Below are positions 12,218 through 35,900 of a DNA stretch of 64,000 nt, piece by piece; position 1 is the first letter of the stretch; every line of letters starts with the position of its first letter. A program made the translations under genes and the position numbers. The notes beneath the pieces are model-generated. The model saw only the letters and a list, made by a program, of their open reading frames with translations. It had not been told where the DNA came from and made no database searches. This stretch comes from Nitrospirota bacterium (GTDB taxonomy: Bacteria; JACPQY01). The stretch spans positions 238,628-302,627 of the forward strand of contig JACPAV010000002.1 in the NCBI GenBank assembly GCA_016180645.1, in the 5' to 3' direction.

Positions 12218-13825
12218 ATGCTCGATCTACTCGTCAAGCTCCGGGCCGTCAGGCGGCTTCGCGAGATTATTCGGTCGTGGTGGGGGATCGAATTGATGTT
12301 CGTGGATTTGGAGGGAAACGTGAGGGGGTTTTCCCCCGGTGAGCGATTCCCGGCACCGACGCCTGTGTGCGGTCCGATCCTGGATTCTCCACCAGGGTTT
12401 CTGCGTTGCATCAGCGCCCTGAAACAGGGGCATCTGAGCGCGCTTCAGATGTCGCTCGATTCGCGATCCGACTTCCCCACGAAACGATTCTTCGAGGGCC
12501 GATGCCACGCGGGGTTCGCCCACCTCGCGCTCCCCATCCGCGTCGAAGGCGCGCCCATCGGATTCATACTGTGCGACGGAATCGTTTCCAAACCCCTGGG
12601 TGAGGTAGACTCCGACAAACTCCGCTCGCTCGAAACGGATCTCCATCTTTCCGAAGGCACGCTGACGCGGGCCGCCGCCGACATCCGGGGGACGTCGGCG
12701 GACAGTCTGGAAAAGCTGAAGGATCTCCTGTCGATGATTTTCGAGGAGGCCGCGAGCTACCTGCGCGAGATCCGGGAGCGCGATGAGCGGATCTCCGAGC
12801 TATCCGATGAGCTTAAGGACACCTACCACTATCACGATCTTATTGGGAAGAGCGCATCCATGCGCCAGGTTTTCTCCATGATCAAGAAAGTAGTTGAAAC
12901 CGATGTGACGGTCCTGATCCAGGGCGAGAACGGCACCGGCAAGGAACTCGTCGCTCGCGCCCTGCACTATCAGGGATCGAGAAGTCACAAGCCGTACATC
13001 GCGCAGAACTGCGCCGCCATCCACGAGAATCTTCTGGAGTCCGAACTCTTCGGCCACCTGCGGGGCGCTTTCACGGGAGCGGTGCGTGACAAGCGAGGGC
13101 TCCTGGATGTGGCCGATGGGGGGACGTTCTTCCTGGACGAAATCGGGGAGATGCCTCCGGCTCTCCAGACCAAGCTGCTCCGATTCTTGCAGGAGGGCAC
13201 CTTCATCCCGCTGGGTGGCACTTCCGAGAAAAAAGTAGACGTGCGGATTATCGCCGCAACGAACCGGGATCTCGCCTCGCTCGTGCAGCAAGGAAAGTTC
13301 AGACAAGACCTCTACTACCGCATCCAAGTGATTACGATCCAACTGCCGCCCCTGCGCGAACGAACGGAGGACATTCCCGTTCTCGTCGAACATTTCCTTG
13401 GGAAGCAGGCCGCCAAGGGCCGGAGCAAGACGCTCTCGCCCGAAACGCTCCATCGCCTCCTCAATTACTCGTGGCCCGGCAACGTTCGGGAACTGGAGCA
13501 CGAAATCGAGCGGCTGGCCGTGCTGTCCGGAGGGGAATCCACGATCGGCCCCGATTTGCTCTCACCCAAGATCAAGGATGGCGGAAGCGAATCGACGGAT
13601 TCAAAAGGCTGGGGATCGCTCCATCGGGCCATTCACAGTCTGGCGCAACAGCCTTGGCATCGCGCCAAGGAACGCTGGGTGGGGCTGTTCGGTCGACCTT
13701 ATCTGGAGGAAGTCCTGCGTTCCGTGGACGGCAACGTCAGCAAAGCCGCCAAGATTTCCGGCCTCCCCCGTTCCACCTTCTACCGCCTCCTCCACCGCCA
13801 CGGCCTGATGGCCAAACCGCACTGA
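12218..13825 (+). CDS. Sigma-54-dependent transcriptional activator with PocR-like sensor domain
   Basis: CHAG in N-domain; GENGTGKE, ESELFGH, GAFTGA, FLDEIGE, WPGNVRELE, Fis-type HTH. Confidence 0.92.
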   Translation: MLDLLVKLRAVRRLREIIRSWWGIELMFVDLEGNVRGFSPGERFPAPTPVCGPILDSPPGFLRCISALKQGHLSALQMSLDSRSDFPTKRFFEGRCHAGFAHLALPIRVEGAPIGFILCDGIVSKPLGEVDSDKLRSLETDLHLSEGTLTRAAADIRGTSADSLEKLKDLLSMIFEEAASYLREIRERDERISELSDELKDTYHYHDLIGKSASMRQVFSMIKKVVETDVTVLIQGENGTGKELVARALHYQGSRSHKPYIAQNCAAIHENLLESELFGHLRGAFTGAVRDKRGLLDVADGGTFFLDEIGEMPPALQTKLLRFLQEGTFIPLGGTSEKKVDVRIIAATNRDLASLVQQGKFRQDLYYRIQVITIQLPPLRERTEDIPVLVEHFLGKQAAKGRSKTLSPETLHRLLNYSWPGNVRELEHEIERLAVLSGGESTIGPDLLSPKIKDGGSESTDSKGWGSLHRAIHSLAQQPWHRAKERWVGLFGRPYLEEVLRSVDGNVSKAAKISGLPRSTFYRLLHRHGLMAKPH

Positions 13826-24157: not shown

Positions 24158-26539
24158 TCAGGCGGCGACTTCTTCCTTGGTGTAAAACTCGAGAAGATCG
24201 CCCACTTTGATTCCCTCGTAGTTGGCGATGGCGATGCCGCACTCCAAGCCGGCGGGCACTTCGCGCGCATCGTCCTTGAACCGTTTCAACGAGCCGAGTT
24301 TCCCTTCGTGAACCATCGCGTTCTCCCGCACGACCCGCGCAAAGGCGTTCCGGTTGACCTTCCCGTCCTTCACGAAGCATCCGGCGATCACGCCGGCGGT
24401 GGAAAGTTTGAACACCTGGCGAACCTCCGCGTGGCCGATGACCTCGATGCGGTGAACCGGCGAGAGCTCCTCTTTCATCAAGGACGTCATTTTTTCCAGC
24501 AGCTCGTAGATGATGTTAAAATTCAGTATTTCGACCTTTTCCTTCTCGGCTGCCTGGAGCGCCTGCATGTCCGTCCGAACATTGAATCCGACGACCAGGG
24601 CCTTCGATGCGGAGGCCAACATGATATCGCTGGTCGAAATGTTCCCGACCGCCGATCGAATGATGTTCAGCGTCACTTTTTCGGTTCCGCCGGCTTGCTC
24701 CAATGCGGCCATCGATTTTCGAACGGCCTCCATGGATCCCTGCACGTCCGTTTTCAGAATCACGCCCAACTGTTTCTTGCTTCCGTCCCTGGCCTGGATG
24801 AGCATCTCCTGAACAGACATGCGGATGCCCATCTTTTGAGCTTCCGCCTCCCTCAGTTTCTGTCCGCGCACCGCGACGATGTCCGCCGCCTTGCGCTCAT
24901 CGTCCAACACGAGGAGCGTGTCGCCCGGCACCGGCACGCCGCTCAGGCCGACGATCTCGATGGCGGTGGAAGGACCGGCCTCCTTCAGGCGTTCCCCGTG
25001 TTCATTCGACATGGCCCGGAGGCGGCCGTAGGTGGCTCCGCAGAGCATCACATCCCCGGTCTTGAGCTTGCCCTGCTGAACCAGAACGGTGGCCACAGGT
25101 CCCTGCGTCTTGTCCAACTTCGATTCGATGATCGTGCCTTTGGCAGGCCCCTCGAAAGTGGATTTCAATTCCAACACATCCGATTGGAGAAGAATTTTTT
25201 CCAGCAGGTCGTCCAACCCCATCCCGGTCTTGGCCGAGACATGCGCGTAGAGCGTATCACCGCCCCACTCTTCCGGATTCAACCCTTTTTCCGCCAGTTG
25301 CTGCATCACCCGCCGGGGATTGCAGTCGGGCTTGTCCATTTTGTTGAGCGCCACGATCAGCGACACCCCGGCGGCCTTGGCGTGGTCGACCGCCTCGAAC
25401 GTTTGGGGCATGGCGCCATCATCCCCGGCCACCACCAGGATGACAAGATCCGTCACCTTCGCGCCCCGCGCGCGCATTTCGGTGAAAGCTTCATGGCCCG
25501 GCGTGTCGAGGAACGCGATCGTTTTCCCTTTGAGTTGCACCTGGTAGGCGCCGATATGTTGGGTGATTCCTCCCGCCTCCTTCTCCGCCACATTCGTTTT
25601 CCGGATCGCATCCAGGAGCGACGTCTTCCCGTGGTCGACATGCCCCATGATCGTGACCACCGGGGCCCGGGGTTTCGGCTCGCCCACCACCGCAATTTCG
25701 GGGTCCGCGAGTCCGGGTTCCTGCGGCGCCGTATTCTCAATTTCGAATCCGAACTCCTGGGCGACCAGCCCGGCCGCGTCCGCGTCGATCGATTGATTCA
25801 AACTCGTAAACTTGACCCCCAAGCCCATCAGTTTCTTGATCACCTCGTTCGCCTTGAGGCTCATGCGTTTCGCCAGTTCGGTGATGGGAATGGATCCGCT
25901 GATCCGGATTCGCCGTTTGATCGCTTTCGGAGTGGTGATCGCCGTCTTCTGATACTGACGCGCCACAGGCGCTTCGCGACGCACAGGCGATGCCTTAGGT
26001 GTGTGGACCACCATGACTTCTTCCTTGATCACGCGCTGAAGATCCCTCGGCCGGTCTACCTTGGGAATGGGCTTTTCAGGGGCCTTCTTGCCCTTGTCCG
26101 CTATAAGCGGTCGGAGCCCGATTTCACCCGCCGGTTTCGGGGCTGCACCCCCCGCCTGGACGGCCGGCTTGGGCGCGCCTTTGGCCGCCTCCGTCGGGGC
26201 GGCCGGTTTGGGTGCGGGCGTGGCGCTGGATGGAGGCTGACCTGGGGCTGCCGGAGTGGCTCCCGCCGGAGTGACGATCGGCGGGGCGGCTTCGACTTCG
26301 ACCGTACCCGCTGCCGGAGCGGCGGCCGTCGGTTCCGCGGACGCCGGGGCGGCGACCTGGCGAACGATCGAGAATTTCCTGCCCTTCGGCTTGGAAAACT
26401 TGTCCCGAACTTTCTGCGCCACCTCGTCGTTCAGATTCTTGGTGGAACTCTTGGCCACGATGCCGAGCTCACCGAGGAATTTGATGATGTCCTTGGAATC
26501 GACCTTGAGGTCCTGTGCCAGCTCTGAAATTTTCGGCAT
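24158..26539 (-). CDS. infB: Translation initiation factor IF-2
   Basis: [35 protein letters not shown]. Confidence 0.99.
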
Positions 26540-26564
26540 GGGGTGGGGTTGAAGCGGGGACCCG

Positions 26565-27836
26565 CTATTCGCTCTTGCGAAGCGCGCGGCGGGATTCCAG
26601 AAGCGCCTGGGCACTCTGCCGGATGGGCTCGGCCACCGCGGCCTCGACGCCCAGCGTTTCCGACAGCTCGGGAACCGGCATGGTCGAAATATCCTCGATC
26701 GAGTAGACCCCCTCCTTGTAGAGCTGCTCGGAAAGATCCTCCGTGACGCCGCTGACCTGCATGAGGGCTTTCTTCACCTGGTCTTTCAGTTTCTGCACTT
26801 CCGACTCGGATCGGATATCCAGATTCCATCCCGTCAACTCCACCGCCAGCTTGACGTTCTGGCCCTTCTTCCCGATGGCGACGGAGAGTTGATCATCCGA
26901 TACCACGATTTCCATCTGCCGGGCGTCCTCATCGATGATCACGCTCTTGATCTTCGCCGGGGACAGCGCGTTGCAAACGAACATGATCGGGTCTTCGCTG
27001 AACGGGACGATGTCGATCTTCTCCCCGCTCAGATCCTGCACAATGGCCTGAACGCGCGATCCCTTCGCGCCGATGAATGCGCCGACCGGATCCACTCTCT
27101 TGTCGTTGGACGAGACCGCCACCTTGGCCCTCCAGCCGGGCTCGCGGGCCACGGCAACCACTTTCACCAGGCCCTCACCGACTTCCGGGACTTCATTCTC
27201 GAACAGCTTGATCAGAAACCCCGCCGCACGTCGCGACAGGATCAGTTGATGGCCCGCATGATGGTTGATGACGTCCAGTATGAAGCACCGGACCGTGCTC
27301 CCTACCTTGTATCGTTCCTTCGGAATCTGCTCTTTCTCTGGGAACAGCGCCTCGGTTCGGCCGATATCGACGATGATGTCCCCCCGTTCGAAACGCCTGA
27401 CCACACCGACGATGACGTCGCCCTTCCGGTCTTTGAATTCGTTGTAGACGTTCGCCCGCTCGATCTCGCGCAGTTTCCGGGAAATGAGTTGAAGCACGTT
27501 GCGGGCAAACACGCGGTCCAGCTCGCGCGTATCGAACCGTTCGCAGAAGAGATCCCCGATGGCGATGTTTTCCTCACCCGATTTTTCACGGGCCTCAGTC
27601 AGGGCGATCTCCCCGACCGTCACCGGCTCAACCCCTTCCACCACTTTCTTGTACTCAAGAATCTCAAGAGTGTCGGTTTCGAGGTCGTACGTGGTCTTGA
27701 TCTCCACCTTGGGGCCGAATTTCTTCTTGGCCGCCTCCTCCACGGTAGAGACCACAAGCTCGCGGATCAGGGCTTGGTCGATCCCCTTCTCCCGGGAAAT
27801 CTCATCGATGACTTGTTTCAGTTTCAGTTCGTACAT
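26565..27836 (-). CDS. nusA: Transcription termination/antitermination factor NusA
   Basis: AREPG, DPVGAFIG, IGKKGQNVKLA; S1/KH and C-terminal HhH. Confidence 0.97.
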   Translation of the reverse strand: MYELKLKQVIDEISREKGIDQALIRELVVSTVEEAAKKKFGPKVEIKTTYDLETDTLEILEYKKVVEGVEPVTVGEIALTEAREKSGEENIAIGDLFCERFDTRELDRVFARNVLQLISRKLREIERANVYNEFKDRKGDVIVGVVRRFERGDIIVDIGRTEALFPEKEQIPKERYKVGSTVRCFILDVINHHAGHQLILSRRAAGFLIKLFENEVPEVGEGLVKVVAVAREPGWRAKVAVSSNDKRVDPVGAFIGAKGSRVQAIVQDLSGEKIDIVPFSEDPIMFVCNALSPAKIKSVIIDEDARQMEIVVSDDQLSVAIGKKGQNVKLAVELTGWNLDIRSESEVQKLKDQVKKALMQVSGVTEDLSEQLYKEGVYSIEDISTMPVPELSETLGVEAAVAEPIRQSAQALLESRRALRKSE

Positions 27837-28039
27837 TTTTGTGCAAACGGCGAATCTAGCACATCTTGCTTTGAAACGGAAGATCTTTCCAATTTCGTTT
27901 AGGTATGAGGCGTCACACCCCCGGCAACATGGTGACAGATTTTCCCCTCCTGTCGTAACTGCGGACAGCCCCGGCCACGTCAATCTGACGGGAGTCTTGT
28001 CAGTATATTGAAATTCCTGTATCACACACGCACGTCATT

Positions 28040-28055
28040 TGGCACCTGAATTGCT
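28040..28055 (+). promoter_or_regulatory. Sigma-54 -24/-12 promoter
   Basis: TGGCAC-CTGAA-TTGCT consensus match; upstream palindromes TGTC-N9-GACA (27951-27967) and CGTCA-N3-TGACG (27978-27990). Confidence 0.8.
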
Positions 28056-28065
28056 CACTAAGTAG

Positions 28066-28170
28066 GTGGCGATCCAAGGTGGGGAAAGCACGAAGGCCAT
28101 GCAGGCCGAACTGTCCCGGAGAGCCGGTGGGGTTGTGAAGCCCGATAAACGGGTCGAACTTCCCAAAGGA
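28066..28170 (+). ncRNA. Candidate structured 5' leader / cis-regulatory RNA of unknown class
   Basis: Starts at the predicted sigma-54 TSS; several hairpins, two similar GAAG-stem-loop-CGAACT modules; ends at the SD AAGGAGG. Confidence 0.45.
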
Positions 28171-28178
28171 GGTTAGTT

Positions 28179-28709
28179 ATGGGGACCATGCAACGACCTG
28201 AGAAAAGCACGTCCGATGTGATCGGAAGCCGGAGGGGTCTGCGCCTTCTGAAGCGCTGGGAGGTCGTCGAGCTGATCAACTGGTGTCAGCGGCAGGACGA
28301 GGAGGACCTCCTTCATCTCCAGGTCAGCGAGCGCGGCCCGGATACCATCGCCATCGAGGCCACGGATGACCGTGTGTCATCGACACTGGTGGTCGATTGG
28401 CAGTCGGGCAAGGCGAACATCGAGACGGAGCAGATGACCCGGCGGGACAGCACGAAGTTCTGGGCCGAAATTCTCTGCCAGGCCTTGGACGGCAAGATCG
28501 AGAAGGCGATTCACCGCGGCTATTTCCGGTGCACCATCTGCAAGGAAACGATCTGGCTCTCCGGACCGCTTGATATCCGGGAACACCTGACTCAACACAA
28601 GATTCCCGTGGAGCAGGTCATGGTGGGCGAAGGAATCTCCCTCAAGGTCGGTGAGAAGACGGTTGATCTGGACAGCTTCCTGGTCGGCGAAGATACGCCG
28701 ATTCAGTAG
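28179..28709 (+). CDS. Hypothetical protein with C2H2-type zinc-finger motif
   Basis: Strong SD; FRCTIC-x14-HLTQH. Confidence 0.75.
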   Translation: MGTMQRPEKSTSDVIGSRRGLRLLKRWEVVELINWCQRQDEEDLLHLQVSERGPDTIAIEATDDRVSSTLVVDWQSGKANIETEQMTRRDSTKFWAEILCQALDGKIEKAIHRGYFRCTICKETIWLSGPLDIREHLTQHKIPVEQVMVGEGISLKVGEKTVDLDSFLVGEDTPIQ

Positions 28710-28733
28710 GAATACGTCCGGAAACTACCTATC

Positions 28734-28792
28734 GTAGGGGAGGACCTTCAGGTCCTCCCAAGAGGAGGGAGCAGCCAAGGCTGCTCCCCTAC
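28734..28792. repeat. GTAG-family REP doublet
   Basis: GTAGGGGAGGACCTTCAGGTCCTCCC...GGGAGCAGCCAAGGCTGCTCCCCTAC. Confidence 0.85.
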
Positions 28793-28827
28793 CAAGATAG
28801 GATTACCGGCCAAGCTGCTCCCTTAAG

Positions 28828-29373
28828 CTATTTCTTTTTCGCTGATCCCTTTCCCGGCTCCGATAGGAGTTTCTCCAGCCCACGGTTCACGGCCAGCAGG
28901 TTTGGCTTGATCAGAACGAAGATAAATTTCTCGACCTGCGGCTGAATCGTCCGCGCCAGCAGACGGGGCACCCGCGGATGCTTCGTGGCATCAATCGTAA
29001 ATTCCCCCGATAGGCAGACTTTCGTCTTCCCTTTTTCGTCGAAGAACTCATTCTTCCCGCTGGCCTGAACGTAGTCGTCCAAGCCGGGGATTTCGAATCG
29101 CCACGCCACCCTGTGCGCGTCATCGTCCCAGTCGGCGTGGTCCAGCCACATCACCTGATCGAGCCCGATGATCTTCCGGACGACACCCGGGACCTGCGTG
29201 CGCGCGGTCCACCGATTGACGAGCCGGAGTCTTTTCCCCTTGCGCTCTTTCTCCAGAATTTCGATGGACTTGACGTCGGGCAGGTACGGGACCAACGAGA
29301 CGAGCTTGTCCCGGTAGGTGGGGTAGACCGATTCGAAGGGGTGATGGATCTCGTCTTCGATGGAGAATTTCAT
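28828..29373 (-). CDS. SRPBCC/START-like (DUF2505-like) protein
   Basis: Lipid-binding helix-grip-like pattern; TTGACT-N16-TATAAT promoter at 29415-29388. Confidence 0.65.
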   Translation of the reverse strand: MKFSIEDEIHHPFESVYPTYRDKLVSLVPYLPDVKSIEILEKERKGKRLRLVNRWTARTQVPGVVRKIIGLDQVMWLDHADWDDDAHRVAWRFEIPGLDDYVQASGKNEFFDEKGKTKVCLSGEFTIDATKHPRVPRLLARTIQPQVEKFIFVLIKPNLLAVNRGLEKLLSEPGKGSAKKK

Positions 29374-35481: not shown

Positions 35482-35871
<390 letters not shown>

Positions 35872-35884
35872 CTACACGCCCTAG

Positions 35885-35900
35885 CGCAAGGTCGGTGCCA
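35885..35900 (-). promoter_or_regulatory. Sigma-54 promoter of the glnB-glnA operon
   Basis: Minus strand TGGCAC-CGACC-TTGCG. Confidence 0.88.

Follow-up and report, generated by a model that had tools for sequence, protein, structure and literature searches.

A predicted sigma-54 transcription unit with a probably plain leader precedes an orphan zinc-finger-like protein gene in a Nitrospirota genome

Sigma-54 promoters are marked by GG at –24 and GC at –12 with a fixed spacing, in hosts that encode sigma-54 and AAA+ enhancer-binding activators, with activator sites ~80–150 base pairs (bp) upstream; their transcripts depend on rpoN and begin ~12 nucleotides past the GC. Classical C2H2 zinc fingers follow the ligand pattern C-x2-4-C-x12-H-x3-5-H, and the consensus for a CsrA site is GGA in hairpin loops. 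Ros/MucR proteins, as presented in two reports (PMC9779718, PMC7710501), are small bacterial regulators that bear one site of Cys2His2 type. Here we describe a locus that touches on all of these, within a 64,000-nucleotide (nt) stretch of a Nitrospirota genome (the window, G000:C31:238628-302627, where G000 is the genome under study), and we compare it with a single sister genome, G001. The locus consists of a sigma-54 type promoter, a leader, and ORF176, an open reading frame (ORF) encoding an orphan protein of 176 amino acids (aa) (28179–28709, + strand; ATG at 28179), taken from the program-made ORF list with its translation. An earlier note on this DNA had proposed that the leader is an undescribed riboswitch or a structured protein-binding RNA. 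We consider it reasonably probable that the locus is instead an ordinary sigma-54 transcription unit, dependent on an activator, that encodes a lineage-restricted orphan protein, and that its leader is a plain 5′ untranslated region (UTR) rather than a ligand-sensing riboswitch. Sequence comparison supports the predicted promoter, its upstream site and the zinc-finger-like gene as real and conserved.

The promoter, as the earlier note had read it, is an exact match to TGGCAC-N5-TTGC at 28040–28054 (+), composed of TGGCAC (28040–28045), a CTGAA spacer and TTGC (28051–28054), so that GG at –24 and GC at –12 stand at the fixed spacing. The motif is kept in front of the G001 orthologue, where it reads TTGGCAC-N5-TTGCT, and the chance of finding it exactly on the right strand of the intergenic region is p ~2.7e-4 in G000 and 5.6e-4 in G001. 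The genome encodes the corresponding machinery, with one rpoN (PF04552, one match, 200.6 bits) and 39 matches to the sigma-54 activator AAA+ domain PF00158, 36 of them at E ≤ 1e-29. A search of 27700–28900 for a sigma-70-like promoter gave none. Judged from the position of the –12 element, transcription would start near 28066. Several of the G000 activator-domain matches sit in open frames of 1700–1950 aa, and one activator gene lies inside the window itself (12839–13342, +), ~15 kb before the promoter studied. The G001 intergenic region also holds a second sigma-54-like string, TGGCACCTTAGGCAT (L006 ~2790–2805), ~60 nt before the conserved promoter, which is absent from G000.

Upstream of the promoter lies a candidate activator site, the inverted repeat GTGACAG-N11-CTGTC (27931–27954), centred ~122 bp before the predicted start and with its GACAG-N11-CTGTC core at 27934–27954. 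It is followed by a third half-site, GGACAG (27963–27968), which is invariant between G000 and G001. Overlapping 15-nt windows beginning at 27930, 27935 and 27940 are identical to G001 at 14, 13 and 14 of 15 positions. The earlier note had pointed to enhancer-like palindromes in this region; the repeat at 27931–27954 is indeed conserved in G001, whereas the second inverted repeat, CTGAC-N9-GTCAG (27985–28003), occurs in G000 only, with G001 identity of 3/15 in these windows. Directly 5′ of the –24 element, an A+T-rich block (TTGA.ATT.CTGTA) and the string ACACGCACGT (28026–28035) together cover 28005–28035 (+); positions 28007–28026 are 13/20 identical to G001, ACACGCACGT is identical there, and the two could form a site for a DNA-bending protein. 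The order of elements is the same in both genomes, with G001 showing GGTGACAG-N-CTGTC, GGACAG, an A+T-rich block ending in CTGTA, ACACGCACGT and TTGGCAC-N5-TTGCT. Aligned identity to G001 amounts to 31/43 in the upstream site block (27928–27970), 22/30 in the promoter, 15/36 in the stretch between them and 40/113 (35%) in the leader.

The closest known counterparts of the promoter are activator-dependent sigma-54 promoters, and one in the same window serves as a positive control. A second exact TGGCAC-N5-TTGC lies 7.8 kb away (35886–35900, –), with TGCAC-N7-GTGCA repeats upstream that we take to be NtrC-like sites. It is followed by a glnB/K-like gene (35482–35820, –) and by transporter-type ORFs reaching down to 29561, read by eye as ammonium-transporter type with no Pfam run on them, and the unit looks like a nitrogen-regulated sigma-54 operon. 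The two promoters share an identical –24/–12 motif, an inverted repeat ~100 bp upstream and the same genome's rpoN and activators, and differ in their upstream sites, TGCAC-N7-GTGCA at glnB/K versus GACAG-N11-CTGTC at ORF176. Among 43 relaxed sigma-54-like sites in the genome, only this promoter's has both GACAG and CTGTC within 220 nt upstream. Because the upstream site differs from the TGCAC-N7-GTGCA repeats and is unique among those 43 sites, a dedicated activator for this promoter is likely. The spaced pattern GACAG-N10-13-CTGTC occurs at four places in the genome (8 strand-wise hits), and by eye no sigma-54 motif was seen near the two of them inspected (C36:3611 and C37:19366). Searching metagenomes with the promoter DNA pattern gave 0 matches.

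In the transcription unit that we favor, an enhancer-binding protein, one of the genome's many, would bind GTGACAG-N11-CTGTC and GGACAG ~100–130 bp upstream and contact sigma-54 polymerase at TGGCAC-N5-TTGC (28040–28054), with the conserved A+T-rich spacer perhaps bent in between. Transcription would then begin near 28066 and yield an mRNA with a ~113-nt leader, encoding a 176-aa lineage-only protein with a C2H2-like metal site. Small GC hairpins in the leader, one of which pairs the Shine-Dalgarno sequence in G000, may affect mRNA stability or ribosome access. The motif, its conservation, the rpoN and activator genes and the standing of ORF176 as a real gene under purifying selection are shown by the data; the start site, the activator acting here, the DNA bend and any role of the hairpins are inferred.

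For variation among closer relatives we used contigs of two groundwater runs, designated X5 and X6, which carry relatives that are 87–93% alike; contigs of four runs were placed at 80% likeness. The variant map holds the best-supported differences only, 66 further differences lie outside it, and no contig piece spans the whole stretch. Variation in these relatives shows ORF176 to be a real gene under purifying selection, since 14 of the 16 variants shown in it fall at third codon positions by our own count. The encoded protein belongs to a tiny family: the G001 orthologue is 64% identical, a third orthologue-like protein (P0002) is 60% identical, and there are paralogues too, a second copy in G000 and two additional ones in G001. 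Only 4 clusters were found among 5.8 billion proteins, and 6 hits at E ≤ 0.001 (3 at E ≤ 1e-30) among 1.84 billion representatives. For further orthologues, a scan of GTDB genomes returned G001 only (3 loci), the relatives search found no match in 39 of 41 genomes, and a scan of JGI metagenome proteins gave 0 relatives among 455 pattern matches. The paralogues offer no common hint, as their neighbors, read by eye, differ: one has an OmpR-type response regulator beside it, and another adjoins an alpha/beta hydrolase-like ORF and an outer-membrane-type ORF. No sigma-54 motif was seen by eye in the printed upstream regions of the paralogues, on which no scan was run. One paralogue pair, L003 (G000:C12) and L007 (G001), has a common conserved upstream block, CCTCTCATGAA.TC...CCGAATA.

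The earlier note had described ORF176 as a C2H2 zinc-finger gene. Its Cys and His ligand positions are invariant and lie in a predicted beta-beta-alpha unit, the spacer is 14 and not 12 residues, and no Pfam cut-off is reached. Invariant residues include C36, H112, C118, C121, H136 and H140, and the ligand pattern C118-x2-C121-x14-H136-x3-H140 is invariant in all seven family members (7/7). Like classical C2H2 fingers (zf-C2H2, PF00096), the family combines an invariant Cys-x2-Cys and His-x3-His with accompanying F/L hydrophobic positions, and the model of ORF176 predicts a beta-hairpin plus a helix; the 14-residue spacer sets it apart from the canonical 12. In searches of Pfam and NCBIfam, no family reached its cut-off for ORF176 or its family members. 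No Pfam zinc-finger family was hit by ORF176 at E ≤ 1, and sub-threshold zinc-finger hits (E 0.025–0.028) appeared in one of the seven members. The family profile matches the poly-C2H2 protein P0008 at E 1.3e-7 over 12 stretches. P0008 carries Pfam zf-C2H2 at E 1.7e-39, and hhalign gave E 4e-4 and a probability of 34%. Because of this cross-hit to P0008, a C2H2-like finger in ORF176, predicted to be single and to lie between two other domains, is supported. A further family-profile hit (E 1.5e-10), to the ricin-lectin repeat protein P0007, was set aside as probably a repeat artefact.

AlphaFold models of ORF176, with a predicted local distance difference test (pLDDT) score of 74.2 for the whole protein and 80.5 for residues 105–176, divide it into an alpha-beta4-alpha domain (residues ~20–105), the C2H2-like unit and a beta-rich C-terminal tail. 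Predicted strands 115–118 and 124–126 and a helix at 130–139 carry C118/C121 and H136/H140. Neither Foldseek nor a sequence search of PDB gave anything above threshold for ORF176, and an Atlas search gave scores of 0.84–0.85 only, leads at best. Zinc fingers appeared in the structure searches only as weak rows (Z 2.4–2.6, Foldseek E ~2–4), and fold searches with the C-terminal part gave nothing clear (best Z 3.4, Foldseek E ≥ 0.6). The best alignment of the N-domain model is to the RNase H3 N-terminal domain (Z 8.0, root-mean-square deviation 2.5 Å, 68 residues), and it also aligns with KA1 domains (Z 6–7; METTL16 KA1/VCR, Z 6.5–6.6); a Z of up to 8 is, by the tool's own statement, the typical best score for models without a true relative. 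ORF176 resembles Ros/MucR in being a small bacterial protein with a single site of Cys2His2 type. Among the Pfam hits at E ≤ 1, none of the seven members shows the Ros/MucR family, whose domain order is unlike that of ORF176.

The predicted leader runs for ~113 nt (28066–28178, +), its start following from the –12 position. The hairpins that the earlier note had named can be drawn on this strand: hairpin 1, GGCC-AUGCA-GGCC (28095–28107, –5.8 kcal/mol); CCGG-AGAG-CCGG (28116–28127, –4.7 kcal/mol), which is found in G000 only and is absent from the shorter leader of G001; and hairpin 2, GCCCG-AUAAA-CGGGU (28140–28154, –6.4 kcal/mol), which is not part of the minimum free energy (MFE) fold of the whole leader. 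Hairpins 1 and 2 are each preceded by GAA, and the repeated module that had been described is borne out as GAA(G)-hairpin-(C)GAAC, present twice in the leader. A further hairpin, AACUUCC-CAAA-GGAGGUU (28157–28174, +, –7.1 kcal/mol), is in the MFE fold and pairs the Shine-Dalgarno sequence of ORF176, AAGGAGG (28166–28172, +). The folding energies do not support the description of the leader as densely structured. The GUG-GGGAAAG-CAC hairpin is worth only –0.5 kcal/mol, and the outer stem GCGATCC/GGGTTGT has 3 G-U among its 7 pairs. Compared with shuffled sequences, the MFE has z = –0.79 for 28060–28185 and z = –1.73 for 28066–28178, and for the proposed junction at 28069–28136 z is –0.04, and 91 of 200 shuffles are at least as stable.

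Covariance-model searching with the 4227 models of Rfam returned 0 matches to a known family at gathering score in the whole window, and at E ≤ 10 the region 27840–28850 gave 3 chance-level hits (E 8–9.8), none of them a riboswitch. The earlier note had already found the core of the c-di-GMP-I (GEMM) riboswitch to be absent, which the lack of an Rfam match confirms; likeness to GEMM and other Rfam riboswitches is limited to the 5′ leader position and a GAAA-like loop, and the difference lies in the absence of a model match and of conservation in the orthologue. BLAST found no second copy of the leader in G000 or G001.

The comparison between species rests on a single orthologous leader, that of G001. 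At ~75 nt it is ~38 nt shorter than that of G000, and it is without the outer stem, the GGGAAAG hairpin and the CCGG hairpin. By reading alone, no pyrimidine-rich segment complementary to the Shine-Dalgarno sequence was evident in the purine-rich leader of G001. RNAalifold gave a consensus energy of –1.4 kcal/mol for the pair of leaders. The conservation and covariation expected of an aptamer were not found, in a comparison of low power with one orthologue.

Within the closer relatives, the leader variants shown are a deletion of 28092 and the substitutions 28111 C>A, 28112 T>A, 28113 G>C, 28121 G>U, 28134 U>A, 28146 U>G and 28155 C>U. Several of these break long-range helices of the MFE fold, the change at 28134 (in X6) breaks a pair of the proposed outer stem, and others alter the 'GAAG' and 'CGAAC' flanks. 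In X6, the leader-holding piece 28068–28228 (161 nt, including 50 nt of the ORF) has 16 differences versus 16 in a coding piece of 270 nt; in X5, the leader-holding piece 27997–28179 (183 nt, including the promoter) has 13 differences versus 5 in 202 nt of coding sequence. By these counts the leader-holding stretches are diverging faster than the coding sequence, opposite to the expectation for an aptamer. Taking the leader evidence as a whole, a riboswitch is unlikely.

Several observations weigh against a plain leader behind an ordinary promoter. First, the bare promoter motif is only mildly enriched genome-wide, with 16 exact copies where a first-order model predicts 7.4 and base composition 11.0. 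Since several of these 16 copies also lie inside long open frames by a rough test, the bare motif alone is little proof, and the case for the promoter rests on conservation. Second, the leaders of both G000 and G001 have a modest folding advantage over shuffled sequences: z is –1.73 for both, and 11 and 12 of 200 shuffles did equally well. Third, GUAG...CCAAGG occurs in both leaders, along with two GC hairpins of 4–5 bp that follow GAA(G) and close 5-nt loops. Hairpin 1 has unlike stem sequences in the two genomes (GGCC-AUGCA-GGCC in G000, GGGCA-GUGGA-UGCCC in G001), while hairpin 2 (GCCCG-AUAAA-CGGGU versus CCCGA-GGGAA-UCGGG) has the core CCCG/CGGG in common. Finally, of the 8 leader variants shown, one a deletion and seven substitutions, none hits a stem of the three local hairpins; by our estimate, the chance that 8 changes miss 32 stem positions of 113 is ~0.07. 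Together these points leave room for a possible small conserved two-hairpin RNA element.

One form that such an element could take is a small protein-binding RNA, in which the two tandem GAA(G)-hairpin modules would be bound by an RNA-binding protein, possibly ORF176 itself in autoregulation. The presence of both modules in both leaders, with 5-nt loops on partly different stem sequences, speaks for it, as do the variants that miss the hairpin stems and the alignment of the ORF176 N-domain model with nucleic-acid-binding alpha/beta domains (RNase H3 N-domain, METTL16 KA1/VCR). Only two sequences are involved, however, and the simply conserved core of hairpin 2 provides no covariation. The module's flanks vary as well: in X6 position 28092, the first G of GAAG, is deleted, and X5 and X6 each carry a change at 28111, the C of GAAC. 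Across the genome the GAA-hairpin-GAAC module is not enriched, with 42 matches versus 9–43 when the flanks are scrambled, and the structural alignments lie in the Z range that models without a true relative typically reach. On balance we regard a protein-binding element as improbable. Its boldest version, in which the TBP/KA1-like N-domain and single C2H2-like finger of ORF176 would bind the protein's own sigma-54-made leader at the two GAA(G)-hairpin modules and so set its own translation, making ORF176 an RNA-binding protein of a new kind, strikes us as very improbable.

The hairpins could also be read as targets of CsrA-type translational control, with the genome's CsrA binding GGA in the hairpin loops and the Shine-Dalgarno sequence. 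A csrA gene is present (81.5 bits), GGA occurs in the Shine-Dalgarno sequence and in both hairpin loops of G001 (GUGGA and GGGAA), and in G000 it is found in the GGGAAAG loop and the Shine-Dalgarno sequence. In G000, however, the loops of the two common hairpins (AUGCA and AUAAA) are without GGA, and in leaders this rich in purines GGA is frequent by composition; CsrA control is accordingly a distinctly doubtful explanation.

Alternatively, the leader might itself be translated. An upstream ORF at 28099–28176 (25 aa, or 36 aa if begun at GTG 28066) ends 2 nt before the ATG and could couple translation into ORF176, its stop TAG (28174–28176) abutting ATG 28179. By our own count 4 of the 7 shown substitutions lie at its third codon positions, which falls short of significance (binomial p ~0.17, uncorrected for the choice among three frames). 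No similar peptide was evident on reading the G001 leader, whose GTG at 2905 shares the reading frame of the main ORF, and ATG 28099 has no good Shine-Dalgarno sequence at a suitable distance, making translational coupling highly unlikely.

Least convincing is the riboswitch of the earlier note, a ligand-binding aptamer exposing or hiding the Shine-Dalgarno sequence: its ~113-nt length, several hairpins, alternative pairings involving the Shine-Dalgarno sequence and z of –1.73 (28066–28178) are outweighed by a proposed junction that folds no better than shuffles, the absence of any Rfam match at gathering score or to a riboswitch at E ≤ 10, an orthologous leader that is not conserved and lacks the outer stem, two hairpins and the Shine-Dalgarno hairpin, an outer-stem pair broken by 28134 T>A in X6 as far as shown, and the faster divergence of the leader-holding stretches, and we consider it extremely unlikely.

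As a predicted sigma-54 transcription unit from a groundwater lineage that has hardly been sampled, the locus provides a clean example of a conserved promoter of this class whose upstream site, GACAG-N11-CTGTC, is distinctive. In a lineage with about three dozen activator genes, it could help to pair one activator with its target. For the question of how such fingers arose and spread, the tiny orphan family with its bacterial C2H2-like finger holds modest interest. In practical terms the chief outcome is negative: more orthologous leaders are needed before the proposed new riboswitch is taken any further.

Around the unit, gene order is conserved. The divergent neighbor is nusA (26568–27836, –; Pfam NusA_N, KH_5 and S1, all above cut-off), which adjoins the orthologous locus in G001 too, with infB (24158–26614, –) beyond it and 342 nt of intergenic region between nusA and ORF176. 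Convergent with ORF176 lies ORF181 (28828–29373, 181 aa), which has a weak DUF2505 match only, and the ORFs beyond it are of ammonium-transporter type, as judged by eye from translations on which no family search was made. G001 retains the order nusA, ORF176, ORF181 and amt-type ORFs. Just before the nusA start codon, 27841–27871 shows 9 differences in 31 nt (relatives X6 and X8) and is far more variable than the flanking nusA coding sequence.

Outside the promoter unit, 3′ of ORF176, a copy of a ~59-nt genome-wide repeat family lies at 28734–28792 (within 28728–28801; inverted repeats I1, I7 and I8). The family forms a nested double hairpin, arranged as GTAGGGGAG-hairpin-spacer-hairpin-CTCCCCTAC, and scanning the given strand of the contigs with the pattern GTAGGGGAG...C[TC]CCCCTAC gave 117 matches. 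Many of these lie less than 300 nt from the start of a contig, so that assembly is probably interrupted by the repeat. Both hairpin stems of the repeat vary in a compensatory way between copies.

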